A stretch of DNA of 64,000 bases from Psammoneis japonica (lineage: Eukaryota): positions 1 to 64,000 of the forward strand of contig QPGO01000164.1 in the NCBI GenBank assembly GCA_008632985.1, written 5' to 3'. A model generated the notes under the pieces. The model saw only the letters and a list, made by a program, of their open reading frames with translations, was not told the origin of the DNA and did not search any database. Numbering within the stretch: position 1 is the first letter of the stretch; each line of letters starts with the position of its first letter. This document shows positions 4,227-40,364 of this stretch, in pieces. Position numbers and translations under genes: made by a program.

Positions 4227-5110
4227 GCAATGTCATGTGGTGTGCAGCTGATGCTGTTGTTGTGACAGCAAACAGCGCACCAACTGCCATTGATGACTGG
4301 TGGAGGAGCCAGCAGCACAAAAAACACAATTTTGCAAAGGAAAAAAAAAAAAGCATCAGCATGACAAACATCAACAAAAAGAGAACTTGGAGCTGCAAAA
4401 AAACACCAATCATTGCCATCTTCACAGTTGTTTGGGATTTTTGTTTGTGTGCACAGTTGCCATGTTTCCGGCAATTCCATGGCTGCCAGGTTGTCAGACG
4501 ACAAGGCAAGGTGCAACACTTGGTGCAGCAACATGGACAAGGACAGCAGCACCCCAAAACAATTTGACAGCAACAACAAGCAACATCACTTTGCCTCATC
4601 TCCATGAATGTTGCCGGTCTCCAACCTTCCATGGTTGCTCCAGAAATGTTGGCATTGAGCGACCAGCTCCAGGTGGTTGTGAGACAATTGCTTGCTTCAG
4701 ATCCTCGCATCATTGCACTTCAAGAGTGCCCCTCTGCAGATTGGGCATTGCAAGCAGCAGCCTTTGACAATGACCACGTTCTTTTAATTAGATCTGAAGT
4801 GTTGCGGGTGGGTTGTGTCATCTTGTTTGTCAAGAAGGAGCTTGTTTTGGAATGAGTTGTTGAGCTGCAAGAGAAGAGACACCAGCCATCATGGCAAAAG
4901 CAACACACACTCTCCAACAACTGCAACATCCATGTTGCATCTGTGCACTTGGAACCATTTGTGCAAGGTTCTTTTCTTTGGTGAGACAAAATGCAACAGT
5001 TGCAAAGTGTTTCTAAAACAACATCAATGCCAATGACTTTTTGGGCAGTGCAAATGTGAGAGATGCAGAAGATGTTCCTCAATGCTTGGAAGGAACTTGG
5101 CGCCTTGGAC
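4227..5110 (+). pseudogene. Hypermutated copy 1 of the TDP2-like EEP gene at 56052-57067
   Basis: Residual translation MNVAGLQPSMVAPE...LLASDPRIIALQECPSADWALQ matches the intact gene. Stops and frameshifts present. Confidence 0.9.
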
Positions 5111-5144
5111 AAATCCCCAGAACAATCAATTGCCAATTCAATTG

Positions 5145-5563
5145 ACTGCAATTAAGGGGAGTCATCATTTGCCACTTTTTTGACTTAAATTTGACCAAAC
5201 AGCTTGTGATTTGTGTGATTTTTCTTGAATTTCACTGTGCTTCTTAGTGGTGAAAACATCAAGCCACAAGTCTGCGAAGGAGGTGGTCTGTCTGTCAACT
5301 CTTGTCAGTTTTATGTCCGTTGTGTGTCAAAGGTCACACACCATGAATCAAATGTTTGTGGACGGACCACTGCATTTTGGAGCCATGCCGACATTGCTGC
5401 CATTGCCATGTTTTGATCATGGCACCTGAAGTTCTTGTTTTTGTGCACAGTCGGAGGTGAATGCAAACAATTTTTGCACTCAAAAACAAACACTGCAAAC
5501 ACTCTTGCTCAAATGCCATGGCAATTCTGGATAAATGCGGGGATGACCCCCCTCAATTGCAGT
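5145..5563. mobile_element. MITE-like element with about 22-bp inverted ends
   Basis: 5145-5166 actgcaattaaggggagtcatc vs revcomp of 5542-5563 actgcaattgaggggggtcatc (20/22 match). No coding capacity. Confidence 0.5.
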
Positions 5564-7205
5564 TGTCAATCAATTGCAGCACACCCACCCATTCCCCAAT
5601 GCAAAGAAATGTGCAACTTGTTCAAAGTGCAACAATGGCGAAGGAGACACACCACCACACGAGTGTCCTCGAAATCATTTTGGCAAGGAAAAAATGTGAA
5701 CGGAAGATGGCCAGACCACTGTCATTCTCTCAACAACATTGGACACTGTCAATGATCCACGTGCATCCAGCATTGCACCTTTTTGGAGTTTTGTGGGGGT
5801 CTTCATGAAATCAACAAACTCCTGCAGACAATGTTTCTAGCCAACAGCAGGAAAGCGGCAACAAACAGAACATCAAACAGCAAGCCAAGTGTGGGCAAAC
5901 CTGGAAAACTTTTCAAGATCATCAAGGTGTTGGCACTCCAACTTGGAACAGTGTCAAGAATTTCAGTTTGACAGAGGGCATTGAAAACATCACCCTGCTT
6001 GCTTGGATGGGATGAGTGCACCCAAGGCTGAGTTCTGCAGCTGTGTGGCCCCTCTCCTGCCATTTCTTTCTCCAGCAGATTTCTCGAGGAGGAAGAGGGC
6101 TGGTCAGCAAGCTCGTTGATCATCATTTGTTTGTCCACTTTCTCAATGGCTGCAATCAAGCTCACAGTGGAGACAAAACCACAGCAAGGCCTTGGAAGAG
6201 CTGGAGTGGGTCATCCTTGGATTGGCCATCCTGCAAATCAGAGAGAGGATTTGACTGTTTTTGCATCTCTCTCTTTTCACCCCTGTCAACAACAAGAAGC
6301 TTGGACATTGCAACAAACATGCTTTCTTGTTTTGAAGCATGGACAAAACAAAAGCGAGACCACCCAGGTGAAGGGGGCTGCACCAGCAACAATGACCCCA
6401 CATTCAGAGTTTTTCTGCGAGCATGAGTTTTAACAAATGTGTGTGTTTTTTGTTTTTTCTGTTGCAGCATGCACACAAAAGAGCAACAGATTTGCAAAAC
6501 TCTTGGCGCAGCAACCTGTGTGGCCATCTGAGCAAACACTTGATGAGCAGCCCTGTTGACAACACAAGTCATGAGTTGGCAAAGTTTCAAGAGCCAGAGC
6601 TCTGTCATGTCAAACAACTTTGATGGGTCAAACAATGGGTTGGGCGAGTTGAGGAGATTTGTTTGCTGTTTGTTGTTGATTGTGATGGAAACAGAGAGAG
6701 AGAGAGAGAGAGACAATTGTGACAACAGCCAGAATGAAAATGAGAAGGAAGCTCCTGCTCCTCATTGTCACAACATGAGCAGCTGCACGACTCTTGCTGA
6801 TGTTTCTGCACACTTGCAAAAGAAGCTTGGCGCCAAAGCAATGTGCAGGAAAACCCAGTGTCCACCATTGGCCCTGCCAACTGTGGCCAACAAGGACCCT
6901 GTAATGTGGTTGCGAATGTGGGTTTGACTGTGCTAGCCTTAACGGCAGATGGCCATCACAGCATTGAGAACAGGACAGTGCTGTAGATAGATAAAAGAAT
7001 AGAACACTCTAGCTAGTGGTGGGTAGAGAGCAATGGAGAGTAGATAGAACCACACCTCGTCCCGCGTCTGTCCATTTGTCCGCTCTCCACTGGTGTTCCC
7101 CTGCTCGCTGACTCAATCCAAGAAATTCCAATTTCGTAACTTTCCGCTTTTTGCTTGTGACAATGAGTTCTTCAGGGAAAACACTCTCACCATAGAGACC
7201 GTCAT

Positions 7206-10313: not shown

Positions 10314-10979
10314 ATGTGCGAGAAACAAGTGCCAGATTGTTTGAGTTTCAACACTGCAATGCCTTATTTGCACACATGTGCTAATGCACGGTTCATCTTC
10401 ACGTTGTCTCATACCAAACAAAATACTCACAGGCGTTTTTGAAATACTTCAGGTCGCCTCTCGCGATCTACACAATAAATCACAGCACCATGCCAACCTT
10501 GCATGCCGGCGGATTGGTCTATCATCAAGGACAGCCTCATGTCCTTATTCCTGTAACAACGGCCAAATTGTATGAGTGTTTGACGCCGAGACGGGTCTCT
10601 ATCACGTCAATCAAGACGACGAAAATCGCTTTTTTGGGCATCGGTACATCGTCGTGAGAATCCCAGTACGAGGTTCTAACCGTGCCATCCTTTTTTACCG
10701 TGCAATCCCACCTTGGAAATGATGGTTGTAGGAACCTATGCACGTTGTTCCGACAGCATCTTGGGCGGGTCATGACGATTCGTCGGAGTGTCGGTCTTGA
10801 TTAGAGAATCGATTGGCATGGAAACGGAACGCTGGAGCTAATGATTCACCATGGACCTAGCGTACACCATACTTTTCTGAAATGCAACATGCCATCAACA
10901 GACAAGAGTGAGCAGTGAGATCAAAAGCAAGATGGAGAATGCATGTTGCCTTTGATGCAATTTGACAGCACAAAACCCA

Positions 10980-11445
10980 TGAAGAGTGCCATTTGCAAAA
11001 TGTCAGATCAAGAACTGTGGGAGCACAGTTGAGCCAAAGGAGTTGCTTTCAAAGGACATCATTGATGGCCGTGTGACACCGAAAATGAAGCCAAAGGCGG
11101 TCAAGCAGATGCGGCCTGGACACGAGCCGCATCCGCTTCAAAACTTTGGGTCCAACTTGAGAAGCCTCAGAAAAATTTTTAAAGACTCATCAAGACCGGG
11201 CTGATGTGGACAGTGCAGCACTTGCTCATGACCATTGCTTGCATCCAATTGCTGCAACATCATCGCATGGCTGCCCCAGGTGGGAGGGATCAGAGGCCGA
11301 GAAGTTCGTCCAGCAAGACATTGAGGATGACAGCATTTTGGATGTGAAACCCGTGACACTTTGCCAAACCAGACCAGAATGTCAAGCTTTTCCTCTTCGT
11401 ACATTCCAAGACCACACTCATCAAGCAAAATGGGCAAAATGACTT
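10980..11445 (+). pseudogene. Degenerate two-repeat ORF of unknown function, possibly transposon-associated
   Basis: Two internally similar segments (KDIIDG...RPGHEPHPLQNF and QDIEDD...LCQTRPECQAFPLRTF) interrupted by a stop/frameshift. His/Cys occupy positions consistent with former Tyr. Confidence 0.4.
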
Positions 11446-12639
11446 GGTTGCATTGGCTTAATTGCTACAAAAAGAAAAAGCAGGCAAAGTGGAACGGGCA
11501 CAGGTGATTTGCATTGGTTGTCATCTCTGGATGTCAATTGTTTAGATTGGCTCAAATCTTGAACAAAACACTTGCCATGCAGCACAATGGCCAGCACCAG
11601 TCATTCTGTCCTTGGCTTGCTTGTCGCTCATTTTAGATCTCACCAACAAGTTGCACCTTGATCGTTGCCGTTTGTTCTGCACTGTCACCATGCCATGCAG
11701 CCAGTGTGATGCAGTGCACTGTTGAGCCAATTGATTGATTGTTTGAGACCACACGCAGTGTTGTCACAATTGTGCCCACAACACCACGACAATTTTGCAG
11801 GTTTTGGCAATTGCTGAAACATGGCAGGTTTCAGCAGAATCTGGCAAAACACGCAGCAGGTTTCAGCAATTGCTCAAACATGCATTTTTGGTGATGCACG
11901 GCTGGAAGGTGCTGTTAAATGTCAGGGGTCTGTGGTGATGAAGGGGTGGGTTGGCAGGAATGTGTGGTGAGAGGGTGGTGCAGAGTGTGCTGAGTGATGG
12001 AGAGAAAAAAGACCGGCCAAGGGTTTTGACAGATGGTCAAGAGGAGGAGTTGTCATTGACAATTGGCTTGGCGTGCAGAGAGGTGGTTGGAGAGAGTGAT
12101 GCCAAAGTCAAGGTTGAAGATTTGTGAGGTGCGCAAAGAAGTTAGGGTGTTGCGGCATGATGGTGGGAGGTGCCAAAGTGGTTTGGTGACACTTGTTGCT
12201 TCCAGGCATTGCTTGAGTGGGTGAGGAAGTTGAAGGGGAGCAGGAGTGAGTTTTTGAAGGCAGAGAAGGAAGCTCAGGAGTTGGAGAGGGAAAATCAACC
12301 AGCCCAAGGTGGTTTGGGAGGAAGAAGAGAGGGATGGAGGAGGATGTTGTGGCGGAGACACCAAAAAAGAAAACGTGGAAGTGGCGTGGATGCCACCCAG
12401 GCAATTGAAGACAAAAGGAGGAGGAAAGTCATGCTTGATTGACAGTGTTGACAATGTTGGAGCAGCAGGCGGATGACACAGTTTGGCCAAGGAGCCAGGA
12501 GGTGGGGGAGCTGGTGGTGTTGTTTGATGTCTGAAGAACATGCCCAGGCAAACTAGAAATTGTGATGCATTTCAAGTGTGGAGGAGGAGACACATTCACC
12601 AAATTGCCTCTTTCTGATGTTGGCAATCACTCACATGTT

Positions 12640-15310
12640 CATGGCCTGAGAATTTGCTGTGGAGCTTGAACATGGAGTTCTGCAGGAGGCCCAATGTTGC
12701 ACACAGTCATGAGGGGGGCGGAATGCATCACAAAGAAGAAAAGAAGTGTGAGTCTTTGTCATTGTCAAACAGCAAGGATGATGACCTCAACAATGTTTTT
12801 GTAAAATTCAAGGTGCACAAAGGTGTCTGCAATTGCAATGGGGTGGCTAACACAGATCTGGGAGATGAGCTCCTGACCAAGAGTAAAAAGAAAAAGGCAG
12901 TGCAAGCTGATGGTGTGGAGAGCCTCAAGGACACCAACAACAAGGGCAAGAAGTTGTGCCAGTTGCTCACAAAATCCTTCACCAAGTTGATCTGAGCCCT
13001 GCCTGACAATGTGCACAAATGTGATCAAGTCATGCAAGAACAAAAAAGTGGGTCAAGGATTTTGGTGCACAAGATCAAGAGCACCTGAAGCACTGCTCTG
13101 AACAGAGTGAGTGGATGACTGCCAAATGCACTTCAAGAAGAGCTGAACTGGAGCCAGGTGGCTTTAAGAAAGCTTTGTTTCACTTCAATGAGCCAGAAAA
13201 TTTCAACACCAAAATTTGGACAGATTGATGACATTCATCACCTGGATGAGTTGCAGTTGACAATGTGTGTGTGTGTGAAAAGGTCCCCGATAATGAAAAA
13301 TGGAAGGCTTTCAAGTTTGAGTGTGCCACAAGGATGACACCACAGAGAACATGTTGCACAGTGCCTTCAAGCAGCACTGTTAGAAGAAGTGGGAGACAAG
13401 TGTGGGAAGTGCAGCCAGAAGGGATGCAAGGTGCTGCAGTTTGGTCTGAACAAAAAGACTGCCATGTCAAAAAAACTCAAAGGCAACTGTTGGCATTGCA
13501 ACAAGCCTAGACACCAGGCAAGAAAAAGACAAAGGAGAACAAGGATGACAAGGAAGCCAGTGATGTCACCACAGCAGCAGTGCTTGACTTTCTCAACTTG
13601 GTCAAGGAATGCAAAGGCTTGCTTGTAGTCTCCTTCCAGGCAAGAAAAAGACAAAGGAGAACAAGGATGACAAGAAAGCCAGTGATGTCACCCCAGCAGC
13701 AGTGCTTGACTTTCTCAACTTGGTCAAGGAATGCAAAGACTTGCTTGCAGTCTCCTTCTTTGACAAGCTAGAGGACAATGATGAAGAACCCAAGAAGAAA
13801 CTGAACAGGCTCTTTGTCCTTGTGCAAGTAGAGCAAGATGTCAGACAACAAAGATGGTGGTGGCATGAGCAAGGTCCTTGTGGGCTGATGTGGGAAGAAG
13901 AGGACAGTGCCCCACCTCAGGCAATTTGATGTGACTCAAATGGCAAATCAGAAGACAAGTCTGATGATGACTTGGTCAACAAGTTCTGTGAGATGCAGAA
14001 GTTGCATGACAAGGACAACAACAATGGTGCCAATGCTGATCCATTGCCAGAAGGGTAAGTGTGTGTCCAAGGTGGTGACAAAAAAGACAGTGCCCAAAAT
14101 TTGAATTGTCATTTTGACTCAGAAAGCAAGTTAGAAGACATGTGTGGCAACCCAATGACAGATTTGAGGAAATGCTGACATGTCAGGCAGTTGGAACAAG
14201 ACAGCATCAAGCTGCTTCTGCACTCTGGATCAACAGCACATGCAAGCCAACAGGACTTCTAAAGGCATGAGGAACCTTGAGGAAGTCAACAAGACTGTGA
14301 AGGACATGCACATCGGGACTTCAGTGGCACAATTTGAAAGTGTTCATTCTTTTGAGTGTTGAGAAGTGGATGGGGCAGTGGCTGTCATGGAGATGTGTGA
14401 CCAGCCATTTTCCCCCTGCAACACAGCAAGTCTCACAAAGTTGGTTGAGAAAAATTGCACCCTGAGAGTGCCAAGGCAGACCCCAAATGTGCCATCATTC
14501 TGAGCGTCCTGATGGCACAAAATTGATTTTTGAAAAATCTGTAAAGACAGCCTCTTTCACATGGAGGTGAAGTGTTTGAGGCATGCTGTGGAAACAAGTG
14601 TGGGTGTGTCAACCAGATGGAAAGAGGTGCACAAAAGGACTTGTCAAAGAAAGTCCATGTGAGTTGCACGCACATTTCATTGAACCACATGGGTGAGTGC
14701 ACAATGAAAATGGCGGCAGCAGATTTTGGTTGGAAATTGAAAGGAGTGCTGCTGAAGACCTGCAAGTGAGTTTTGCATTGGAACAAAGGCTGCAGCAAAG
14801 GGAATGGCAAAGACCAGCAAAAAAGAAAGCAGCAAGACTTAGCCAATGGCTTCTGCTTGGACATGACAAGGCTGTTGGAATTTCATGGGTCAACCACCAA
14901 TCTGCATCAATCTCACCAACTCCAAAACTCACCAAATGGATCACAAACACATCAATGCTGTTGCTGCATCACCATGTCATTCTGGTGCAGAAGCTAAAAA
15001 GTGAGCACAAAACACACATTCATGGAGAATTTGCAAACAGCTTCTTTTTTGTGTGTTTTCAAAAACAGCACATGGTTGTGGAAGCTGGATGTGATTCAAA
15101 TTTTTCAAGCACAGTTGTGTTCAAACAAGAGGTTGCCAGCAATGGCAACAGCATGTTTTGGCAGAGAAAGAGTGTTGCACCCACCAAAAAGACAAAAGAG
15201 CAGCTGTTTTGCAAAACAAGTGCAGGGACACAGTCCTTGCAGAATGGGGAGAGCAAAGCAAAATTCATGAGCTTTCAGAGCATGATGTCAAAAAGACAGG
15301 CAAGCTAAGA
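12640..15310 (+). mobile_element. Degenerate Ty1/copia LTR retrotransposon (gag knuckle, protease, pre-integrase/integrase relics)
   Basis: Zinc knuckle GNCWHCNKPRH (about 13482-13515), protease-like LLLHSGSTAH (about 14212-14241, cf. LLDSGST.H), and GAG-pre-integrase-like H...NHMGE...A..FGWKLKG...TC (14670-14765), in copia order. No intact ORF and no confirmed LTR pair. Confidence 0.65.
13515..13760 (+). repeat. Direct duplication of about 121 bp inside the copia relic
   Basis: ccaggcaagaaaaagacaaaggagaacaaggatgacaa...gcaaag.cttgcttg.agtctccttc occurs at about 13515 and 13636. Confidence 0.9.
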
Positions 15311-16458
15311 CAGCTGGCAGCATGCATTGGATCGACAGGAAGTGAGAAGTGAGAGGGAAAGAGAAAGTGTGTGTGACCACTTTTGGACTCCCTCAACTAA
15401 ATGTGCATTGGTGCATGCCTGTCTGTCTCACTGGGTGTGAGTTTGCCCCACACCTCAACAGGCAGGCGCCTCTCCAGCTCCAGCCAATCCAAACCCTGCC
15501 CCCGCCTGTTGGAATTCACCCTTCCAGTGACCACTTCAGAGCCACTTCAGTCCTCTGAGGTCTGATCATGAGGGCAAAATAAACAAGCTTGTTGTCACAA
15601 TGCTTTCTAAGAGTTGAAAAAGAACAGCAATGATGGCGCTTCTCCGGCAGCCCCCACATCGTGCTTCGTGCAGAGCACATGAGTGCTGATGCATGAGTCT
15701 TCTTTGCACCATTGCATTTGGGCACTTGAGCTTTTAATCTTTTTTTGAACACATTTGCCTGCTCCTGCTGACCAATGATTTGATGCTTCTCTGGACGGCT
15801 GTGTCTGTGTGAAAACAGGCAGATGAAGACAACAGAATTGATTTTCTCGCCACATTGGCCCATTGTCACTGCCACAGCAATTCTGGCTATCTTCAGACTG
15901 TGCACTCCTCAACTTTTGTGTGAGCTTGAGTCTGCAAACGATTTGGAAGTCACCAAATGCAATTGGAGGTTTCAGAGTCGTCCCTGATTTTGATGTCGTC
16001 GCTCTTTTGGATTCACTCTGTTCCTCTCCAGACTTGTCTTTGGATTCCACCATTTTCTCTGGCGCAAGGATCGTGAAGATTCAAGATGATCCACCTTGAG
16101 GACAACCTTCAAAAGCAGCCATGGTTGAGGCTAAGGTCAATCTTCCGACTCGTCAGTGGCGCATCAGGCAGATTTGGGCGATGCATGCCACTGCAGGATT
16201 GGCGATGCGAGCTCTCGCTCCGGCATCTTTCATGCAGGCCTAACTCCAACCCCATGCAAAGCTGCCTCTGCAATGATGTAGCTCATAACCCATCTAAACA
16301 AACAAGCAAAAATCCAACAACAAATTTCGCGACCGACCGCCGATGGCCGACCCGCACCTCTCATCACAACCAGGCTCCTTCTCTCGAACCAAGCCATCTC
16401 TCTCTATCCTGAAGAAGACGTGACGCATGTATAAAAGCTGCTTTGGCATGGCGCAGAG

Positions 16459-19400
16459 ATGGCGCCACTGCCGCTGTCTGATGAGGAAGAAGGTGTGAAC
16501 GTGTTGGAGCTCGGCGGGGAGATCCGTCCGCATCGTGGTCTCGCCACCCTCAGAGAGATCTTTGCACGGACAGCAAGATGAGTGCCCGACAACGTAGCCC
16601 TTGAAGATGCGACGGGAAAGCAGAAGCTCTCCTGCGGCGAACTTGATTGTCTCGCCGACTCGTTGGCCGCCAGGCTGCGATCGCGTTACGGCGTCGGACC
16701 CGAATCCCCCCTCGTCGGCTTGGCCGCCGAACGGACGATCGGCTGTTTGGCATCTCTGCTGGCCGTTCTAAAAGCCGGCGGGGCCTACGTCCCTCTCGGT
16801 TTGCGACTTCCCGATGCTCGCATCCGAACCGTGCTGGAAGATGTTTCGCCGTCGGTGGTTCTGTGCAGCAAGGCCTGTGCCGAGCGTTTTTCCAAACTGG
16901 GTGTTGAACAGCTGTGTGGTCGATGACGACGATCTCATCCTCCGCCGTGATTCGCCGACAGTAGAGATAGAGGAAACGGTCGTAGGAGACAACCTTGCTT
17001 GCGTGATTTTTACATCGGGCACTGCCGGCAAGCCCAAGGGCGTCATGGTTCCAAACTTGGCTGTGGCCCATTACATCGATTCGATGCGGGCCATCCTCAA
17101 CCCTGGGCCCGACGAGCGGGTCATCCAAATCATGGAGCTTGCCTTTGATTCCTGCATTTTTGACATTTGGATGGCGTGGGCATTTGGTGGGACGGCGGTT
17201 CTTTGTGAGAAGTGGACGGCCCTTGAAGGCTTTGGCGAGTTTATTCGCAAACGCAACATTGCAACCCTTGGATGCACTCCGACACAGCTTGGCGCAGTGT
17301 CACCTCAGGATGTTCCCAATTTGCGCGTGGTCGCCATTGGTGGTGAGGCCGTCCCTCCCCCGTTGATCAGAGAATGGGCACAGCACCCTTGCTGTCACAT
17401 CTACAATCAATGTGGACCTGCAGAAGCAACGGCAACTGTGACATCTATCCAATGTGCTCCTGACATGAAACATCCAAAGTCAATTGGGTTTGCAAATCCT
17501 GGCAGGGCAAAGCTTTACATCCTTGATTCCGATGGGGAACCTGTGAAACCCAGTGTTCCGGGCGAGCTCTGCACAGCGGGCCCACAGGTGGCCCGTGGGT
17601 GTTTCAACTTGCCAGATCTTACGGCAAAGAAATTCGTTAGAAACAGATTCTCAAATTCAGCCGAAATGCCAGTCCTCTACAAGACCGGCGACCGCTGCCG
17701 CTGGCTTCCTGATGGCAGCATTGAGCATCTTGGAAGGCTGGATGCACAGGTGAAACTGCAAGGGTTTCGGATTGAGCTGGGTGAAATTGAAACAAAGTCA
17801 CTCGAAAGGAGGGATGTTCGAGCTTGTGCTGTTGCTCTTCGCCACCGAAAGGAAGGCTCTCCATTTCTTTGTGCATGCTTGGTCCCAGAGAGAACGGGCA
17901 CAAGGCTAGATGCGGGCAGTCTGCGATCCCATCTGGCATCTTCTCTTCCGGATTACATGGTCCCTGCTGCATTTGTAGAGCTTGTTACGATGCCGATCGA
18001 CTCCTCTGGCAAAACAGACAGATCTCGCCTCCCAGATCACTCCTTGGCTTCGACGGTTGGGTCACATGATCCAAAGAATCATCAGTCACCGCTTTACAAG
18101 AAACTGCTGCAGATTTTTGCTGATGTGCTGCATCTCGAGCCGCAAGATGTTGGGCAGGATGCTGACTTTTTCATGCTTGGAGGTCAATCTCTTTCAGCCG
18201 CGAGGCTCCTCGGCAAAGTGAGACAAGAATTTGCGACCCGGGTCCGGTTTGCTGAGTTTTTTGCTGATCCCACTCTCAGTGATGTTTTGTCATGCATCGT
18301 GGATGCTGGAGCGACAGACAACATGGACATTGAGGTCTGCCCACGCAGTCAGAGAGTTGGAAAACAGCTTCCTCTCTCCTCGGCACAAGCACGAATGTAT
18401 TTCCTCCATCTGCTTGATCCCAGTTCACCGGTTTACCATGCATCCGCAGTTTTTGATCTGGGAAATGGTGTCGTGAATCATTCTCGCCTTGAAAACGCAT
18501 TCCGAACCGTCATCAGTCGCCATGAGATCCTCCGCTCTTCTTATGGTCATTCTTCAGAAGGAACCTTTCAAGTTGTCCAAGATGACTTTTTGTTTCCCCT
18601 TCGTCAGCTTGACGTGCGCAACATGGAACACGGTGACAGGCAGCTGCGCATGCAGAAAGCCATGACAGACATCACTTCAGCTCCTTTCCACCTCGAAGAT
18701 TCAAGTGCTTTGCCCATCCGAGCACTGCTTATTTGGCTTGAAGAGCAACGCTCGCAGCTTGTCATTGCTGCACACCACATTGCCATCGACGGTCTGTCAT
18801 GGGACATTTTACACACGGAGCTGTCAGCTGCCTGTGCAAATCAACGCTTGCCACTTCTCACAATTCAATTTGGCGACTTCTGCCTTTGGGAGGCGAAGTG
18901 TCGGTGGAGTGCGGCCTGCCGAGAACTGCTAGATTGCTGGAGGGAGGAGCTTGGGGAGAATCCCGAACCTCTGCGCCTTCCCACTGACAGGCCCAGACCT
19001 GGTCTCCACTCGAGTGAAGGTGGGAGCTTCACGAAACATTTTCATGGGATTGCGTCTCCACTCCGTGCAGCTGCAGCTGCACATGCGACGACTCCTTTCT
19101 CCATCTTGCTCTCTGCATGTTTCATTTTGCTCCATCGCCTCACCGGCCAAAAAGAAATCATTGCAGGTGTCCTGTCATCAGGACGATCTCACCCGAAAAC
19201 AGAATCCCTCATTGGCATGTTTGTCAACACGCTGCCAATCAAAGCACAACTCGGCACGAATCTCACATTTTCGGAGCTCGTTGCGAAGGTGAAATGGGTG
19301 ACTGCCATGGCATTTGATCATCAAGATGTCGCGTTGGAGGATCTTGTGAAGAGGCTGATTCATTCAAGATTGCGGGGACAGACCCCACTTGTTCAAACGA

Positions 19401-22400
19401 TGCTGACTTTCGACGAATGTGATGAAAACGGTGCTCCAGGCCCAGTGTTTGATGGGCTGAAAGTGGCGGAGCTCGAAGTGGAGGAGACCAAGACAGCGAT
19501 GTTTGATTTTTCGATCGGCTTCAGTCTGAGATCTGGTGATCACTTGCTCGTTGAAGCCGAGTTTGCCACAGATCTGCTCGATCGTTCAACAGTTGGGCGG
19601 GCGATTGATCAACTTGAAAGCATCCTGCGGGATGCGATCCTTGCAGAATCGAGCATCATTGGAAAGCGTGAGGAACTGGAATTGGTTCAAAGAGATTGTC
19701 CGGGTCGCAACAGCATCACTGTATTCCAAAGATCTGCCGAGGATTTTTTGGAACCCAGGACAACCGAGGAAGTCAGGCTAGCAGCGATGTTCTGCAAACT
19801 GCTGGACCTCCCACGGGTGGACATGCGGGACAGTTTCTTTGCACTGGGAGGAGACTCACTCCTAAGCTTTCAGCTGGTTGCCTTGCCCGGAGCCTTGGGT
19901 GCTGTCTTAATGTGACTTCTGTGATGGAATTTGAGACAGTGGAGAAGCTCGCTTCCTTTCTGCTTTCTGCAGCCTCTTTTGGGCCTGATGTGGAACCACC
20001 TGCACAAAGGGCCAAATGTCGGCTGGTTGACCTGACCCCAATCCAGAGATGGTTTTTCGGTGAGCACTTTCCAGCGCCTTCACACTGCAACCAGTCAAGG
20101 ATGTTTCTGGTTCGGAATGATGTCGATGAGGCAGCTCTCCAGGCTACACTCCTGTCACTTGTCATCCATCATGACGCTCTGCGCTTCTCTCATGAAATAA
20201 AAGGTCGTCACGCGAGGCAGATCCAGCATGCTGATGATCTGGCGTCAAGTTTTCTCACATTCCGCATCGAAGACAATTTAAAGGAAAGCTTTGAAGGGCC
20301 GCTGATTGAAATCGAACGCGAAACCGAACGAGATCAATCATCGCTTGATTTGGAGAACGGACCCACAATGGCAGCAACACTGTTCATGAGGCCATCACCT
20401 GATCCACCCCCACTCTCGATCGTTGTTCATCACCTTGTCATTGATGGGTCAGCTGGAGAGTGATTGTGGATGACCTCAACATGGCCTGCTCCCAACTTGC
20501 GGCCGGGGGACCGGCGAGCCTCCCGGCAAAATCGCACTCCTTTGCACAGTGGACATCTGCGCCACAGAAGCATTCGAAATCCTGTTCCTTGTCAAATGAG
20601 CTTGCGCGCTGGCACTGCGCAGAGGCATCTCCTTTTAAGTTGCCTTTGCGAGCTTCGCGGGACAGGCACAAGAGGATCGAGCCCAGAGAGGATTGGATGT
20701 CATCTTTGGTCGAATGTGCGAACATCGAAGGGCTGCTGTCGACCACAGCCGTCAAAGATCTAGTGGTCGCGGCGCTTGCCTGGAGTCTGGTGGAGCCATC
20801 TCGTGAAAGCAGAGATGTTTGCATCATCGTTGAAGGTCGTGGCCAAGAATCGGGCATCATCGCCTCTGGGTTCGACCTCACTGGGACTGTTGGTTGGTTC
20901 ACGTCCATCTTTCCTGCACGCTTTCAGTTTGATGGGGTCACAGACGCTGGAAATGTGTTCCGCACAGCCTTGGAACAGCTTCGAGAAATTCCAAACAATG
21001 GCATCGGCTGTGGAATTTTCAAGCATCCGCGCTGTGGATGTTCCTCTCTTTCCAATCATCATGCTTCTCAGGTTGCCCTCAATTATCTGGGGCGCTCCTG
21101 GACCCAGGCTAGTGCATTGGATGGCATGGACTTGACGACGCTGGATTCTTTAGACTCCTCAGACCTCATGCTTTCCTCATTGGATGGCATTCCCACCTCA
21201 GATTGGGATCCACGCAACCAGTCGGACGATTCGATTCTCGATGTATCATGTCACATGATGGGATCACGTCTCGAGATGAGTTGGCAGTTTCGTTCTGACC
21301 TGCTCTCCCGTTGTTACGTGAACGAGCTCGCCGAACGCTTTTCCACCAACGTCACCGCCATGATCGCGGCGGTCTCCAATGGCGGACCCCGAGCGCCGGG
21401 AATTTTTGTAGCGAGATTTGGAAAGAAGATTGAAGACGCAATCAACGCCGTCTGGGCAAAGCACCGCCACCACGATAACTTCCACGGATTGTCCGTCAGC
21501 GCCGTTGTTGATGGTGAGATCGTGTTTGCTGGAGGCCATGGCTTCCGTGACGCTGAGCGCAGAGTCCCAATTGATCCGCACACTGTATTTTCACTCGGAT
21601 CGGCGGGGAAGCCCTTCGTTTCTCTTCTGGGGGCCATCTTGGTTGACGAAGGAGTCGTCGACTTGGACGCTCCTCTTGAACCGACGCTGTCCGAAGCAAA
21701 GATATCACTTCCGGAGATCTATGGACAGATGACGCTCCGCCAACTGTTTTCCATGACAGCCGGGATTCCCTATGTAGAAACTCATGTTGAAGAAACCATG
21801 GACGATCCATTCGAAATTTGCAGGTCAGCTATTGAAATTGTTCACAAGCCCGGATCCTGTTACTTTTATAGCAATTTCAGCTACGCTCTTGCGGGTTATA
21901 TCCTTACGTTGGCAGCTGGGTGTGAAGAGGATTCTATCTGTTTTGAAAACCTCCCCGAACAATTTCTTGGGTTGCTCGAAGAAAAGGTTTTCACCGCAGT
22001 GGGAATGGAAGATGCCAAACCCGAGGGATTTCAGTTTCTCTCCAAGAATGGTGCAATGTTGGGATCTGATCACGTGAGAGGTGCGGTAGGCAGCGCTGCC
22101 ATGCTGCCGTCAGGTCCAGTAAAGGCAAGCGTAACCGATACAGCTCGTTTTCTCATCACCGAGTTCCAACGAGGACTTTCACCGGCAGGGTGTCGCGTCG
22201 CTTCGGCAAGTCGCGTCTCTGAACGCTTCAATGTCTCCCAGAGTCAGGGGTCCGACTGGGGAATGGGATGGTTTCGTGACAGGCATCACGGCTTCCTTTA
22301 CATTTCAGGCCAGTGGGCGGATACAGTTAGCGGGCTCAAAGTAGATCCTGTCAGTGGGTTTGGCTTGTCCTATGCTGTTTCCGTTTGCGACAGTACGCAG

Positions 22401-22493
22401 ATACAGTTCATAGAGCTGGACATGGACCGGCTATTTATTGACCTCCTAGGGGAGGTGCGGCGTCAAACTCCAAACTCCAGATGTGGCAATTAG
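16459..22493 (+). pseudogene. Non-ribosomal peptide synthetase A-T-C-T-E-serine beta-lactamase/PBP-like; partly hypermutated, probably inactive
   Basis: A domain (LKAGGAYVPL, FTSGTAGKPKGV, YKTGD, GFRIELGEIE, LPDYMVP); T (FFMLGGQSL); C (HHIAIDG); T (FFALGGDSL); E (LTPIQRWF, HHLVIDG[V]SW, EGRGQE, TVGWFT); serine hydrolase (GSAGK = SxxK, YSN). In-frame TGA at 16579-16581; frame breaks near 16915, 19885 and 20447. Confidence 0.88.
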
Positions 22494-22824
22494 AGAGTCT
22501 GCAAATCACGGCAAATTCTGATTACATGATCACACTGTTTAGCATTCCGGCAGCGACACTGAAAAATGCAATAACGGACGAGTAAATGGCCGATAGGCGA
22601 CGGATTTCGAGTCTTGTTCTTTCAAAACTCTACCTTTTTGTCATCACCATTAACTGTTATGGATTTGTTGGTCGAGGTCTTCAATCTTTGAGTAAACTTC
22701 TTGTATCTCTCTGTATATCGGTGTAACATCTTGACCAAGCTCACGCGCCAACTTTGCCACTTCCTTTTTACATTCAAGTCTTTTCTAAAACAGATTTAGT
22801 TCCTTTTCAAGACTAGTAGACCTT

Positions 22825-23617
22825 TTGCTTTCTGGCAACACATTTCGGTCCAAAGAAAACGAGGACCCTGATTTGCAGGCTTGCCGCGACTCCGTGACGA
22901 CCAAACCCAGTCGGAATATTTACGGTGCATGGACCTTTTGTGAGAGTGTTGTGCGTGATGGTCGCCCCTCTATCATCTCGTTTGGTACTGGCACAAATAT
23001 GGATTGGGAGATGATCATGATTGAAGAGTATAGTGCGACGATATGCACACGATCCAACACCCAAGTCGATTGCTTATGTTGATACTCAAAAGCAAAAATA
23101 CAAAGCTCTATCAACGGACCGGTTTGTGTTCAATAGCGTGGGGATTGCTTATGTTGAGACTCAAAAGCAAAAATACAAAGCTCTATCAACGGACCGGTTT
23201 GTGTTCAATAGCGTGGGGATTGGTGCAATCGACAATGACTATGTCACCATGAATCTACCGAAAAACACAAACTTTGTATCTGGACGAGGTGGCTCGAGGG
23301 AGGCGGGGAGTACGGGAAGCATTCAGATCAAACTGGTGACGTTGCCGGCCACACTGAAGCTACACAGTTTGGATGCTGTAGACATTATCAAGTGGGATGT
23401 GGAAGGCGTCGAGTTTGATGTTCTTGATATTCTTTTGGATTCCGGATTTGGTGTAACGGCGAGACTATTTTTGGTGGAATGGCATGGTCCATTTTTTGAT
23501 AACGAGAGTCTCCAGCAAAAAGCCATGCAAAAGCTCGAAGCTGCTGGTTTTGTCAAAATTCATACCTCCGACAAGGCGGAGGAAATGTTTTTCAATACCC
23601 GTTTCAACATAAAATAA
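22825..23617 (+). CDS. FkbM/Methyltransf_22-like SAM-dependent methyltransferase (frame break near 23043; 5' exon uncertain)
   Basis: IISFGTGTNMDWE, A(H)DPTP, VDIIKWDVEGVEFDVL and LVEWHG are typical of this family. Confidence 0.7.
23068..23222 (+). repeat. In-frame 75-bp tandem duplication (IAYV[D/E]TQKQKYKALSTDRFVFNSVG x2)
   Basis: Copies start at 23068 and 23143; one mismatch seen. Confidence 0.95.
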
Positions 23618-24289
23618 AGTGGCATCATAAAGTACTCTGGGATTTTCTGCTGTTCAACTACGAGCAGTTTACAGACACACAAAAAAAACCTCCGGTCTCA
23701 TGAATCATGAAACCAAAGCCTCGCTTGGCCTGGTCGCCTCACCTTTTAGTCTCGTGTACCCTCAAGTGACGGGTTGAGGATTGAGGATCAACATAAAACA
23801 AGACGAGGATTGTCTCCTTTCAGAGCACATCGATCCGTTCATTACCGGTACTACAGTATCACTGTTCTCGGCATATCATGGCAATCGGTGTTTCTTTCTG
23901 CTCCCTCCATGTGGTTGCATTGGCCGTTTAGGATCTCAATCCTAGTTGCCTGCAAATGTCAGTTAACGATCGTCACTTGAATCATTTGGGCGACGACACA
24001 GACTTAATCACCATGACAGTAGTATGAGAACGCTGCAAATTCAGACTAGTTGAACGCAGCTCTAAATGTTAATTCTTAAGTGCGAAGTCATTCCTTAAGA
24101 TGAGTGTGTGTGCAGTGTAATGCACTGTTGTCTTGAGCCATTGTGTGCCAATGCATCAGGCACATGGCCAAAACCAAAACTACAGCAAGAGCATCACCTT
24201 CATGCTGTCAAATTCAACTGCCTCTTCCACATCATTAATTCAAGGTTACCACTTGAACTTGCATGAGAGCCAAGAAACCAACAGCAATG

Positions 24290-25860
24290 CAGGGGGCACA
24301 ACGGTGGTTGCCTTGAGTGTGCAAGTTTGTTGGGACATCCCAGGGCCCGTCCCCATGATGCATGGTGTTTTTTGTCCACTTGAGGGAAAACACCTTTGTG
24401 GCAGCAGGAGGTGTGGGCAATGCTGGGAGGGGGAGAGACCTTGGATCTTGGCAGGTCCTGGGGAACCTTGTGAAGGAGCGATGTCATGATGGCAGGTGTG
24501 GTTCTTGCTAAAAGGATGGCAATCCTTTGAGTGTGTGAGTTTGTTGGGCATTGGGGGTTTTGGAGTCATGCAGCAATTGGCTTGTTCACATGATGCATGG
24601 TGGTTTTTGTCCACTTTGAGGAGAAGCACCTTTTGCTTTTATGGCAGCAGGTGTTGGCAACGCTGTGAGGGGAGACCTTGGCAGGTCCGGCGGAGCCTTG
24701 TGAAGGAGCAATGTCATGAGGGTGGTGGGTGCAGTTGCACAAAAGGGTGGTGATCCTTGCCCAAAATCAAAAATCTTTTTCAAAAATTGTCATGCTGCGA
24801 ACAGGACACTGAGACTTTGACATGCTTCTCACCATTGAAAATCTCAAGCATGAAAATGTGAGTGCATTGGAGTGCACATCACAACAAAGGCATTAAAAGC
24901 CATGAAAAGCACAAACTTGCCTTTCCCAAATGGTTGGTTCATGGATCTTCTGGGTCACAAACATGTGGTTGCACACACACACACACAAAGTGGAACAACC
25001 TCTGTGGGTGTGCACTCTTCAAGATTTCAACCAAGGTTCTTTCTTCTTGTCATCATTCTTTCTTCTTTCCTTTTGATTGAGGAGAGGACAGGAAATGACA
25101 AAATTTACTGCCTGGAACTGTGTCAAAGCCAAGACTGGCAACATCACTTTGAATTGTCATTGTCCACCACCAAGGACCTTCTCTTCTGCTTCTTGCCTGG
25201 CTTCTTTGAGAAACCTTGCCGGATTTCTCTTGTCCATCAGCCCCACACATCATTCCCAACCATGCAATGCACAATGGTGTCTGGCCCCTTTGCCAGCTGA
25301 TTCTTTCATGTGGTTTTGTGTTGAGGAGCAAATGATTTGGGAAAAGGGACCAGAGGAGCAGCAGTGCTCTCATCCTGCTTGGCATCATCAGATTTTGGCA
25401 CTCCTTCTTGATCATCAGCTGGGGGCAATGGTGTTTCACCACAAGAAATGTGCACATCAAGGCTCATGCTGAGATCCAAGAAGGAATCTTGGTCTGCAGC
25501 ATCACATTCTGGCAAGGTCAACCAGCAATGCTTCAAAAAATGAGCTCCTTGAAGAACATGTCATGCAACTCAATTGTCATCAGATGGACAATGTGCCCCT
25601 TTGGATTGCATCACATGACATTTGCAAAAATGAGCTTTTGGCATTCACCATCAAATCACCAAGGGTGCTGCACTTGCCAAGAAGACAACAAGAGCATGCA
25701 GTGCCTGAGTCCATTGGGTGAGCAAAGTGGAACAACCTCTGTGGTTGTGGCACTCTTCTGGATTTCAACCAAGGTTCTTTCTTCTTGTCATCATTCACTC
25801 TTCTTTCCTTTGGATTGGGGAGAGGACAGGAAATGACAAAATGCATTGTCTGGGAATGTG
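24290..25860. repeat. Degenerate dispersed direct repeats
   Basis: About 24355-24530 resembles about 24590-24760. About 24985-25110 resembles about 25722-25850 (caaagtggaacaacctctgtgg...gagaggacaggaaatgacaaaat). Confidence 0.75.
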
Positions 25861-26384
25861 TGGCTTAGATGCTTCAAATTTTTTGAGCTTCTACCCTCCA
25901 CAATTGTGGGACACTCATCTTTGCTTCTTCTTGCTGCACACTGTCGCAAATGTCCACATCTGCAGTGCCTTCCACCTTCCATGGCCATTTTGATGACTGT
26001 CACTTCTTTCTTTTGTCCCAAGCAATGACACCAGTTTTAAAGCTCCTGCAAGCTGTTTTCAGGGTTGTCCAATGCACTGACAGCCTTCAGCCTGACAGCA
26101 ATCTGTCAAGAGTTGAATTGAGCAGTTTGCTGGTTGATGCAAATGAACGTCTCTGTGGCAAAAGTCAACTGGAGCATTGCTGATTTCGGCATGTGATGAC
26201 AGGAAACATGTGATGTGGGGCAAGTTCATGTTGTTCATGTTCCTTCAGACCCACACCTTTCAGCAAGTCAGACGGACAGAAGTGAAAGGGGCAAGTTGTT
26301 GTTGCAATGTTTAAAACAAGCCCTGGGGGAGGGGGGGGGGGGGGGGGGCACTGACCACATGTTGTGCTGGGTTTTGTGCTTGCC

Positions 26385-28625
26385 AGGTGGTCAGTGAGTG
26401 CCAGCTTGGGTGGTTGATGCAAGGTTGGGATGGCCCCACATGTCAAGATGTGAGGACACAAATGAACTGGGCAGCAGGTCAGGAGGTGCACATGCACATG
26501 AGACAAACAAGCCATCCAGAAATGAGATGCAAATGAAACAGCAGTTGACGTGTGCACCATTGCCTCATGGCACTCATGCATGGAGGATTGCATTGTGTTG
26601 TGGCAGCCAGAGCAGAAACAGCAGTTAACGTGTGTGCTGTTGCCTTGCAGCGCTCATTGCTCATGCATGGAGGATTGCATGACATTGTGGCAACCAGTGC
26701 AAAGTTTTGTCCTTTCTGCTCAAGAGCCATTGCACAAGGTCCCCCACAGCCTGAGAACACACAAACAAGTTGCTCCCAGATTTGCTGGGCACAGTCACAT
26801 GCAAACTCCAAACCCAACCCGGGGGTCCCCCAAAAAGCACACATGTCATTGCAAACAAACTTGAAGCTGCTCACACTCTCACAAGCAAAAATGTCCAGAC
26901 TGCAACATTTGCAACCTTCTTGCATTCAGTGGGTGGTCAGTGAGTGTGGCTTGGGGGGTTGACATGAGGTGAGGATGGCCACACATGTTTTCAGAAATGA
27001 GGACACAAACAAACTGAAGGGAGTTGGTCAGGTGCGAGCGCATGTGAGACAAATGAAACATGCAGAAATGCTGACACAAGTGAAACAGCAGTTGTTGTGT
27101 GCACCATTGCTGTTGCCACACAGTGCTTCTCATGCCGGTGGCATGGAAAATTAACCACAAAATTTGTGGTCAACCAACACAAAATGAGAAACAGCTGGTG
27201 TTTGTGCGCAGCAATGCCAGCAGCAATGAGGTCTGGTCATTGTTGCTTGCACGCATGTTGGGGGCAGGTCCAATCTGTCCAATGACTGCCCACCGACCAA
27301 CAAGATTGTCCACTGCCACACAACCCGACTCATCCCAACTGCTGCGTGCACTGCCAACACATCAGCTTGAAGACAGAGATCACATTTTGCGGTGCAAACA
27401 TGATGAGTCTTGGCGGCGCACTCTTCTCCAGGGCTTGCAGAAGAAGTGTGACGACACACACACACACACACAAATCTCCATCACTCTGGAATCTGTTGCT
27501 GCATGCTCTTGAGGGATGGTTTCATTGTGAGTTGCTTTGTTCTATGAACATCCATCAGAGTGCTGTGGTGGTGCTTCAAGCTCAAAACGAAATTGGTTGG
27601 AGACACATTTTCAATGGGCGTTTCTCCTTGTTGTGGAGTGAAGCTCAAGCACCACACTTGTTGTCTGCAGGTTTGCATCACTCCTTGTTGGACAAGGAAA
27701 GGCGCTTAGATTGGGCTGCCACAATTGGCAGTTTTGTGTGGTCTCAGTGGTGGGAACTCTGGGACAGTCTCACAACGACGCCGTGCATGGGCACGATTCG
27801 GAAACAAGAAAGTCCTCAAAGCACCAAGATGCTGAGGCAAAAGTGCAAGCTATCCATTCAAAAGCATGTGACTGTTTGGCTTGCAATCGATCTGAGTTGC
27901 TTGATTCAGTGTAGGAGCATCTCACTCATTTGACCTGTGGATTGCGCAATTGGTTGGCTGTGGTCAGGCCAATGTTCAAGTGTCCAGCATCCACGAAGCC
28001 CAGCGTCTAGCAGTGAGGGGCACTTGCACCATTGCAAGTTATCTTGGTGTGGCATCACCTCAGGGCAATGCCAATTCAGGCCAGTTGTTGTGTGCTCCTG
28101 CCGCACCCAGTGCACTGGGAGTGTGGGTTAGCTTGTTGCTGGAGTTGCAGGGTGGAAGCGCAGCAGCACTTAAAATTAGACTTTTGGTTTTGTTTTGTCC
28201 AATGACCACCCAAAGCAGAAAAAATTCATTTGCACTTGCCACACGCAAACACAAAAAAGTGGCCAACATGCCGTTGTGGTCAACATTCTGTGCCACTGGC
28301 ATGTGTGGAGGATTGCACAACATTTTGATGGTGGCTGGTGCAAAGTTTTGTCGCTTTCTTCCACACAAGAGTCATTGCACAAGGTCCCAACCCCCTGATG
28401 ACACACAAACAAGTCAACATCAAGTTCAAGGCATGCAGTCACTTGCAAACTCCACACCCAACCCGGGTGTTGCACAAAAAGAACGTGTTCCCCTGCGAAG
28501 CAACACACAAAGCTGCTCACACACTTGCGCACACTCACAAGCAAAAATGTCCAGACCACAACATTTGAAACCTTCATTGAAACCTTCATAAAACTTTTAT
28601 GTCACTTGACCCGGGTGGTCAGTGA
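26385..28625. repeat. Tandem units of about 545 bp starting GGTGGTCAGTGA; second unit interrupted by a LINE fragment
   Basis: Unit starts at about 26386, 26932 and 28613. 26660-26920 aligns to 28305-28575, and 26386-26570 aligns to 26932-27110. Confidence 0.75.
27150..28260 (+). mobile_element. Degenerate 3' fragment of a non-LTR retrotransposon (Ambal-like)
   Basis: Cys/His motif relic (..EDRDHILRC) and QNEIGWRHIFNGRFS.LW..AQ...W....WELW..HNDAVHG, resembling diatom LINE C-termini as I recall them. A-rich end near 28250. Confidence 0.55.
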
Positions 28626-38950: not shown

Positions 38951-39114
38951 TGTTGAATGAGGGTTTGTGCAGAAGTGCCATGGATGTGTCTCTTGACACA
39001 TGATGTGTTCATGCACATTCATGTGTGCTTTGTTCTGCCTGTTTTTCTCCAACAACAACTGCTCTGTTGTTCCCCATTGTTGTTTTTGGCACCACATTGT
39101 ATCTGGTCATTGGC

Positions 39115-40279: not shown

Positions 40280-40364
40280 GTTGCAGCAGCAATGTGCCGA
40301 CTGCCATTGGTGTCTGGAGGAGCTGGCAGCAGCACAAGAAAGCACAACAAATGCCAACAAGAGC

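Follow-up and report, generated by a model that had tools for sequence, protein, structure and literature searches.

A nonribosomal peptide synthetase gene of Psammoneis japonica carries a partial footprint of TA to TG/CA mutation

The first 64,000 nucleotides of contig QPGO01000164.1 from Psammoneis japonica (hereafter referred to as the window) contain a gene for a nonribosomal peptide synthetase (NRPS) that carries a partial, directional footprint of TA to TG or CA substitution. Matches to Pfam place its domains in the order AMP-binding, AMP-binding_C, PP-binding, Condensation, PP-binding, Condensation and, at the C terminus, the Beta-lactamase family, with E-values of 2e-41 and 4e-20 for AMP-binding, 1e-21 for PP-binding and 1e-77 for Condensation (Table 1). 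The adenylation (A), thiolation (T) and condensation (C) domains of an NRPS are thus present in module order, and the protein has a single-module-plus organization, consisting of one module and extra domains.

The first search for homologues retrieved only bacterial NRPSs with 29-35% identity, because a length filter had excluded the true relatives, and the best 150 matches in a search of protein representatives, ranked by summed score, were all giant multi-module NRPSs (28-35% identity). A search among longer proteins with the beta-lactamase part as the query revealed four proteins with the same architecture, P0391, P0392, P0393 and P0394, which are 53-59% identical to the NRPS over the C-terminal 383 amino acids and 42-61% identical along the gene. 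Three of them, P0391, P0392 and P0393, are full-length and represent the closest intact homologues, with 50-61% identity along the gene. Metagenome scans added no close relatives: 86 stretches fitted a pattern derived from the C-terminal open reading frame (ORF), none of them a relative, and the 30 loci found with P0393 (26-37% identity) included no close relative and were set aside. All comparisons with homologues were made at the protein level, and 120 bacterial NRPSs served as a secondary test set only.

In the window, the gene is split across four forward-strand ORFs (16582-16926, 16772-19915, 19672-20463 and 20445-22493), and two of the three frame breaks between them are probably assembly errors, as seen from the contigs of a public sequencing run of the same organism. 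At the first of these breaks, a near-identical contig adds a G behind 19879, which brings the local reading into frame, and a diverged copy adds a C behind 19880. When both contig bases, behind 19879 and behind 20446, are added, the frame that begins at 16772 is open for 1,907 codons to a natural stop at about 22491. The label 'pseudogene' is thus not established, as the frame is open once these two contig-supported single-base insertions are made. Near 16900, the first and second ORFs align to overlapping residues of P0392 (35-138 and 133-1157, respectively), indicating that this frame change reflects neither missing sequence nor an intron; no insertion or deletion at 16895-16925 is present among the 12 of 18 contig indels shown. 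The gene retains 13 intact in-frame CGA codons. Since a TA to TG/CA change cannot create a stop codon, the NRPS frame stays open under such mutation, and an open frame therefore says little about function.

The dinucleotide TA is strongly depleted over much of the gene. Ordinary genes of the window have an observed/expected ratio (o/e) for TpA of about 0.5-0.6, whereas the NRPS has only 7 TA at 18001-19000 (o/e 0.12), 4 at 19001-20000 (o/e 0.07) and 5 at 20001-21000 (o/e 0.09). Over the same three intervals CG occurs 46, 47 and 57 times (o/e 0.69, 0.72 and 0.81), and at 22001-23000 both dinucleotides are frequent, with 39 TA (o/e 0.59) and 53 CG (o/e 0.90). These values, with TpA at 0.07-0.12 and CpG at 0.69-0.81 across 18-21 kb, bear out the proposal that TpA was lost from the NRPS while CpG was largely kept. 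The earlier count of about three TpA in 18781-19740 proved exact (TA at 18810, 18930 and 19722), with no TA at all between 18930 and 19722. TA becomes dense again from 21703 onwards.

The footprint has two boundaries and two grades. Conserved tyrosines are kept and lost in numbers of 9 and 6 at 16.5-18.6 kb, 0 and 11 at 18.8-21.1 kb, and 6 and 2 beyond 21.3 kb. The effect had been described as fading toward the 3' end; it is indeed weaker there, but it is also weaker at the 5' end, and it peaks in the middle of the gene. The NRPS is accordingly a two-stage snapshot of the TpA process, in which the core is finished and the 5' third is about 40% done.

To assign a direction to these changes, we called the ancestral state only at the 987 columns that are invariant in P0391, P0392 and P0393, at 785 of which the NRPS agrees with its homologues. 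Tyrosine is the worst-kept residue. At the 34 columns with invariant Tyr, the NRPS has Tyr 15 times, Cys 11 times, His 5 times, and Phe, Arg and Ser once each, so that 16 of the 19 changes lead to Cys or His. Tyr is thereby kept at 15/34 columns, compared with 770/953 for all other residues (Fisher p=3.8e-6), and Trp is retained at 17/17. Between 18.7 and 21.2 kb, none of the 10 invariant Tyr residues is kept, compared with 301/379 other residues (p=2.3e-7), whereas 6 of the 8 that lie past 21.3 kb survive (p=0.62). As a control, the same comparison was made for each homologue at the columns in which the remaining two share Tyr, and Tyr is retained there in 34/36, 34/38 and 34/36 cases.

Sorting the substitutions by context in this alignment to the closest intact homologues revealed the excess of TA-context changes anticipated in the preliminary description. 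Before 21300, mismatches explicable by a single transition occur at 34/245 opportunities for TA-type changes, 15/226 for CG-type changes and 28/1043 for other transitions, corresponding to odds ratios relative to the other transitions of 5.8 (p=1e-10) for the TA type and 2.6 (p=0.007) for the CG type. The CG-type rate of 15/226 in the mutated part is no higher than the 4/47 in the unmutated 3' part. Both strands contribute to the TA-type changes (TA to TG, 22/144 opportunities; TA to CA, 12/101). Furthermore, TA is missing across all three codon phases of the gene, which indicates mutation rather than amino-acid choice. Replacements unique to the query number 83 and 88 in the mutated parts, compared with 54 and 54 for P0392, and 31 compared with 32 in the 3' part (21201-22490). 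The 120 bacterial NRPSs, a weaker test, agree in that 4 of the 8 Tyr columns conserved at 90% or more are Cys in the query.

Eight of the nine motif changes listed in the preliminary description were confirmed against P0391-P0393, namely LSY>C, LAY>C together with TSGT(T/S)>A, NQY>C together with GPT>A, (R/V/L)GY>C, EY>H, YW>CW, HYNQS>HCNQS and GIGY>C; the ninth, GEL[Y>C], falls away, as the homologues also have Cys at this position. Two of the changes lie in signature motifs of the A domain, which read TSGTAGKPKG and NQCGPAE in the query and TSGT(T/S)GKPKG and NQYGPTE in the homologues, and the altered positions are 88-99% conserved among the 120 bacterial NRPSs. We take these motifs to be A3 (TSGTTGxPKG) and A5 (NxYGPTE). 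Given that conserved positions of the A domain are changed, with both motifs damaged, this domain, and with it the enzyme, is probably impaired.

We next describe a second copy of the affected segment, which was recognized from the contigs of the public run by comparing their depths with those of the window flanks. One set of contigs is nearly identical to the window, from which it departs no more than twice per 700-850 bases (one contig of depth 58.7, for example, has 2 differences over 845 bases). The other set differs by about 13% (about 86% identity): its record 3, with a depth of 53.8, departs from the window by 114 differences and 10 gaps across 19602-20446, and its record 4 is similar, at a depth of 42.5. 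The summed contig depth is about 100-160 over 16468-21381, compared with 61.6 at 16000-16467 and 59 at 21382-22551. At the 5' limit a single-copy contig ends at 16572; at the 3' limit a contig departs from the window as a loose end behind 21304, with clean single contigs resuming from 21148 and from 21327. As each contig set has the depth of the flanks (54-59 versus 59-62) and not half of it, a paralogue is likelier than a divergent allele, and an allelic origin of the second copy was set aside as less likely. A second NRPS copy is thus present in the sample, and its span of about 16.55-21.30 kb matches the TpA-poor span. The gene had been described as having no duplicate in the window, which holds, as self-BLAST finds none there, but does not extend to the public-run contigs.

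Over 16372-20907, nine differences are listed between the window and the near-identical contigs, of which seven exchange CpG and TpG/CpA and one exchanges TA and CA, at 16962. The seven hint that CpG decay is now under way in the NRPS. They also suggest present-day CpG hypermutability, perhaps methylation, of the gene.

Paralogue pairs within the window provided a more direct view of the substitutions. Self-comparison of the window yielded nine pairs, each made up of a copy with normal composition and a depleted copy, and their counts were summed; two of the nine share one normal partner (57172-56358), and two pairs with mutation in both members (4222-4936 and 40241-40954; 46444-46855 and 53251-53647) were excluded from the sums. 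Among 148 TA sites of the normal copies, 114 read TG (64) or CA (50) in the mutated copies, 10 are kept and 24 have other states. Among 255 CG sites, 168 read TG or CA, 59 are kept and 28 have other states. The normal partner keeps ordinary TA and CG counts in all nine pairs. Since only one copy is mutated in each pair, duplication alone cannot be the signal.

TpA loss runs ahead of CpG loss in the least diverged pairs, in which it is nearly complete while half to two-thirds of CpG is kept. At 48066-49179, 19 of 30 TA have become TG or CA and 5 are kept, compared with 31 of 48 CG kept and 16 changed to TG or CA. At 2401-3011, a copy of a Polyketide_cyc2 gene, 16 of 20 TA are changed and 11 of 21 CG are kept; together with a leucine-rich repeat gene copy at 50268-50907, it shows that host-like gene copies are among the targets. 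The longer duplication to which it belongs (2401-5073 versus 60922-56358) includes host-like genes with a Polyketide_cyc2 ORF and an Exo_endo_phos ORF, and only its left copy is mutated; part of the segment recurs at 39144-40954, where that copy is mutated too.

The left edge of this duplication provides a second coincidence of a TpA edge with a duplication limit. The segment at 2.4-5.1 kb becomes homologous to 60.9-56.4 kb at 2401; TA sites are frequent as far as 2379 and rare from 2429 on, and CpG stays dense for about 450 bases more, up to 2843. TpA loss exceeds the duplication edge or the CpG loss by about 0.4 kb, as seen at 2401 versus 2843, at 50921 versus about 51300, and in the NRPS at 21304 versus 21700.

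The sequence context of the substitutions is more specific than the dinucleotide. Counted per strand in the pairs, A is replaced by G at 113 of 291 A's that follow a 5' T (0.39), compared with 40-74 of 681-818 after the other bases (0.06-0.09), and the frequency depends on the 3' neighbour: 46/90 for TAC, 41/93 for TAT, 20/62 for TAG and 6/46 for TAA. Weaker A>G change at the non-T sites AAY and CAY is also present in the pairs (R, purine; Y, pyrimidine). In the 41 fully mutated 500-bp bins of the window, RTAY sites have fallen to 0.00-0.01 and one-sided sites to 0.04-0.08 of the normal frequency, whereas YTAR sites survive at 0.25 (CTAG), 0.41 (CTAA/TTAG) and 0.76 (TTAA). The survival of YTAR sites points to 5'-TAY-3' as the target; the pattern appears to fit independent hits at 5'-TAY-3' on either strand, or equally hits at the T of 5'-RTA-3'. 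The residual TA sites of the NRPS follow the same order as those of the mutated bins and the pairs. The 24 residual sites at 16545-18700 comprise 1 RTAY, 20 one-sided and 3 YTAR sites, as against 29-36% RTAY in normal regions, and at 18701-21304 YTAR accounts for 9 of 16, as against 12-14% in normal regions. On the top strand, TAY triplets still number 15 at 16.5-18.7 kb.

The 128 bins of 500 bp also establish the order of TpA and CpG loss in the window as a whole: 41 are low in both TA and CG, 16 in TA only, 46 are normal, and the single bin low in CG only is TA-rich. The depletion is confined to discrete segments with sharp block edges. TpA loss therefore precedes CpG loss, or reaches further, and the proposal, drawn from the NRPS, that the TpA process can act without CpG decay turns out to be general in the window (16 bins versus 1 with the reverse pattern). 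The surviving CpG sites have a context of their own. In the mutated bins, ACGA and TCGA stand at 0.11 of normal, CCGG at 0.29 and GCGC at 0.45; in the TA-only bins, ACGT already stands at 0.35 and other contexts at 0.66-1.14.

A literature search for TpA-type hypermutation returned one relevant report, a 2026 preprint on the chlorarachniophyte Bigelowiella natans, in which mutation-accumulation lines showed de novo TpA to TpG/CpA hypermutation (Mettrop et al., bioRxiv 10.64898/2026.01.13.699255). According to this preprint, two integrated viral regions gained 231 de novo mutations, of which 230 were A>G or T>C, and every one of these GC-biased changes lay on TpA. The preprint also describes an enrichment of transposable element (TE)-type and some bacterial-type domains in TpA-poor genes and proposes an ADAT2 homologue as the agent (10.64898/2026.01.13.699255). 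TpA is likewise where the changes of our pairs and of the NRPS fall, almost all of them A>G or T>C. As far as the preprint's account goes, the two cases also share occurrence on both strands, confinement to segments, long-term low TpA with high TpG plus CpA, depletion of TE-type and some bacterial-type genes, and a proposed DNA-level adenine deaminase. They differ in that the present lineage is diatom-like, that the TAY/YTAR rule applies here and that limits lie at duplication ends; the depletion here is far deeper (o/e 0.0-0.1 versus a reported Rho of 0.45), and the older blocks have lost CpG as well. Moreover, the rate in B. natans was measured de novo in living lines, whereas here we have a footprint, in which window and contigs differ at a single TA/CA site (16962). 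The words 'trinucleotide', 'CpG' and 'diatom' are absent from the main text of the preprint, and a context table in its supplements could cover part of the TAY rule.

Repeat-induced point mutation (RIP) of ascomycete fungi resembles the present case in making dinucleotide-specific transitions in duplicated DNA and repeats, in leaking over a few hundred bases into unique flanking DNA and in inactivating duplicated genes. RIP turns CpA into TpA, thereby creating TpA and stop codons. The direction is opposite here, as TpA is lost, TpG and CpA are gained and no stops arise, and only one copy is mutated per pair, in nine of nine pairs, whereas both copies are hit in RIP. A diatom methyltransferase, DNMT4, is described as RID-like (PMC9998398). 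Methylation-driven CpG decay resembles the CpG to TpG/CpA changes that accompany TpA loss in the older blocks (168/255 in the pairs), but it cannot explain the TpA loss itself; it lags behind that loss (16 bins with low TA and CG kept versus 1 reverse), and CpG changes in the NRPS are no commoner in the mutated part.

Editing of RNA by ADAR or ADAT enzymes, carried into retroelement copies, is similar in producing A>G changes with a preference for a 5' U or T. ADAR prefers a 3' G, and the 3' preference observed here is for a pyrimidine. Such a route requires an RNA intermediate and would mark one strand, whereas both strands are about equally affected here and the gene is no retrocopy. We accordingly rejected a retrocopy of edited mRNA as the origin of the NRPS footprint, as both TA>TG and TA>CA occur.

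Taken together, we favour an explanation to which we assign a probability of roughly 60%: a process that converts TAY into TGY acts on repeat blocks and on one copy of duplicated segments, and the NRPS has been caught part-way, within limits set by a duplication. This explanation builds on substitutions that are observed in a defined context, in one direction relative to homologues and paralogues, symmetrically on the strands and confined to segments. A process in a diatom-like genome would turn 5'-TAY-3' into 5'-TGY-3' on one strand or the other, and would thereby appear as TA>TG or TA>CA. Its targets would be particular segments, namely repeat blocks and one copy of duplicated segments, and the NRPS segment at about 16.5-21.3 kb would be one copy of a diverged duplication, caught midway. 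Two-sided RTAY sites would be lost first and one-sided sites next, with YTAR sites spared; the effect would end about 0.4 kb past the end of the duplication; and CpG decay, which accompanies TpA loss in older blocks, would have barely begun in the NRPS.

Several parts of this explanation go beyond the substitutions. Duplication, or whatever marks the extra copy, would be the trigger. The change was probably made on DNA, as the NRPS is not a retrocopy and both strands were hit. The chemistry may be deamination of adenine in TAY, with a TadA/ADAT-like enzyme or another deaminase as the agent, or it may be a modification of the thymine of RTA, two possibilities that sequence alone cannot separate. 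The tRNA substrate of TadA/ADAT has a U before the edited A, which makes a TadA/ADAT-like enzyme attractive.

A number of points weigh against the favoured explanation. The homologues are only 50-61% identical, which limits the ancestral states to invariant columns. The public run may share its sample with the assembly and hence provides no independent proof of the base calls; the second copy was deduced from contig depths, which are no copy number, and it may itself be mutated and may belong to a co-sampled strain. The coincidence with duplication limits was seen in two cases, 2401 and the NRPS at 16.5-21.3 kb, the latter with its copy number taken from contig depth. TpA-poor stretches without a duplicate in the window also exist, for example 50908-51300 and 33501-34750. 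Mutation of one copy only, in all nine pairs, means that duplication by itself is not the signal, and the main target in B. natans was single-copy, according to the preprint (10.64898/2026.01.13.699255).

The alternative that fares best, which we nonetheless regard as unlikely, follows the proposal made for B. natans: foreign or silent DNA would be targeted whatever its copy number, and the bacterial-type NRPS would have been edited as non-self or silent sequence. Apart from its four close relatives, the kin of the NRPS are bacterial NRPSs at 29-35% identity, and in the B. natans preprint the viral target is single-copy and genes derived from bacteria or TEs are among the TpA-poor ones (10.64898/2026.01.13.699255). 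However, the last 0.8 kb of the NRPS and the FkbM-type ORF at 23021-23617 are undepleted, the boundary lies within the gene, where the duplicated segment ends, and duplicated host-like genes are affected as well (2401-3011 and 50268-50907).

Slightly less probable is that a process directed against the neighbouring repeat block or silent chromatin leaked about 5 kb into a single-copy NRPS, in line with the earlier suggestion that the effect had spread from an adjacent 'copia block'. The gene does adjoin a block in which mutation is complete, with its end at about 16.0-16.3 kb, and TpA loss elsewhere does overshoot the CpG loss or the duplication edge, but by about 0.4 kb rather than 5 kb. Other block edges, such as those at about 24100 and 10900, are sharp, and on the 3' side the limit falls where the second copy ends. 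The gradient is also reversed: conserved Tyr residues survive at 9/15 positions near the block and at 0/11 at a distance of 2.5-5 kb, so that the loss is complete far from the block and partial beside it. Spreading is thus a poor fit, as the effect peaks mid-gene and not beside the upstream block.

The absence of any hypermutation, with the pattern left to preferences for codons or amino acids, to ordinary divergence or to errors of assembly, is close to refuted, for although TpA is under-represented in all genes of the window (o/e about 0.5-0.6), the assembly has indel errors and one of the nine motif examples was a shared Cys, the statistical excess (p=3.8e-6 and p=1e-10), the loss in all three codon phases, the retention of Tyr by the homologues at 34 of 36-38 control columns, the match of the public-run contigs to the window (at most 2 differences per 700-850 bases) and the recurrence of the context pattern in the paralogue pairs all stand against it.

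The NRPS lies among seven mutated blocks (2400-7000, 10900-16300, 24100-28600, 33500-34800, 37000-41300, 46300-51200 and 53000-54000), which hold 165 overlapping ORFs of at least 80 amino acids in all six frames. As TA is gone, TGA is the only stop left, which gives rise to long ORFs in all frames, and gene finders could over-predict here. Among 116 ORFs from mutated blocks, none exceeded the Pfam cutoff and two gave weak sub-threshold matches, and no TE class was assigned. In the upstream block, none of the 25 ORFs of at least 80 amino acids matches any Pfam family and self-BLAST reveals no pair resembling long terminal repeats, leaving its designation as copia unconfirmed.

Table 1. Features of the window and the evidence for each.
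Feature	Position	Strand	Evidence
Upstream block, TpA and CpG lost (the 'copia block' of the preliminary description)	10900-16300		TA o/e 0.04-0.15, CG 0.00-0.50, TG/CA 1.4-2.5
NRPS gene, A-T-C-T-C-beta-lactamase	16582-22493	+	Pfam domains; four homologues with the same architecture
Segment with a second, diverged copy in the same sample	16545-21304		Contig depth; roughly equals the TpA-depleted part
Early-stage zone, A domain and first T domain	16545-18700	+	9/15 conserved Tyr retained
Core of near-complete TpA loss, first C domain, second T domain and most of second C domain	18701-21200	+	TA o/e 0.00-0.20, CG 0.42-0.91 per 300 bp
TpA-poor overhang past the duplication end	21305-21700	+	4 TA in 400 bp; Y>H at 21537
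Unmutated 3' part, most of the beta-lactamase-like domain	21701-22493	+	TA o/e 0.58-0.82; Tyr runs intact at 21720-21897
Frame change 3, frame 1 to frame 2, at about 16900	16895-16925	+	Alignment of first and second ORFs to P0392
Frame break 1, probably an assembly error (one base missing in the window)	19879-19880	+	Contigs
Frame break 2, probably an assembly error	20446	+	Contig inserts A behind 20446; contigs break at 20446/20450
Downstream block, TpA and CpG lost, sharp edge at about 24100	24100-28600		0/29 ORFs with a Pfam match
Mutated copy of an inverted segmental duplication	2401-5073		Normal copy 60922-56358; self-BLAST
Mutated copy, 86.6% identical to normal 54669-55798	48066-49179		TpA mostly lost, CpG two-thirds kept

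Inside mutated blocks there is also a strong skew of G over C at two places, of 0.36 at 12001-13000 and 0.23 at 38001-39000, and TG exceeds CA in the same intervals (112 versus 86 and 138 versus 106, respectively). This skew may reflect a local strand bias of the process or a trait of the underlying element. A TA-rich stretch at 35001-35250 (34 TA, o/e 1.92) adjoins the TpA-free stretch at 33750-34750.

The other genes of the window are eukaryotic and intron-poor, and encode a pseudouridine synthase, an M48 peptidase, an asparaginase, STT3 and an ArfGAP protein; the asparaginase ORF is 63-68% identical to proteins of Nitzschia inconspicua and a Bacillariaceae metagenome-assembled genome and to a cluster with a Phaeodactylum tricornutum protein. 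Just 3' of the NRPS, at 23021-23617, lies an FkbM-family methyltransferase ORF whose N-terminal part includes an internal direct repeat some 20 residues long. At 28889-31579, a purine-rich ORF of 897 amino acids contains 4.6 tandem copies of a 333-bp unit (91% matches) and gives a weak, sub-significant match to the GCM motif. It was considered as a further target, with a TpA o/e of 0.07-0.41 and normal CpG, and was rejected, as TG/CA is not raised and its non-repeated part is also low in TpA. The assembly has a single N at 62349.

Heritable, context-specific A:T to G:C hypermutation of nuclear DNA is almost unknown. The chemistry at this locus is probably the same as in B. natans; what is new here is the lineage, a probable diatom, the trinucleotide motif, the bounds at duplication ends and the precedence over CpG decay. 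If a second lineage indeed follows this dinucleotide rule, a conserved enzyme would become likely and could be sought by comparative genomics. Any mechanism must explain the TAY/YTAR rule, the equal treatment of the strands, the copy-specific targeting, the limits at duplication ends with an overshoot of about 0.4 kb, and the precedence over CpG decay. For annotation, affected genes look intact despite changed catalytic residues, and the NRPS represents an unusually informative intermediate of hypermutation.

We tentatively propose, as a possibility that falls short of an even chance, that a diatom genome defence edits DNA at 5'-TAY-3' (A>G) in extra copies, bounded by homology like RIP yet with the opposite chemistry, and that it acts fast, before methylation-linked CpG decay, and without creating stops. 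If this were true, decaying copies would stay open in all six frames, and the NRPS would be a natural time series of the defence. Together with the Bigelowiella report, such a system would point to a hypermutation defence directed at adenine, or at the thymine of RTA, in the DNA of algae across the stramenopiles, alveolates and Rhizaria (SAR).

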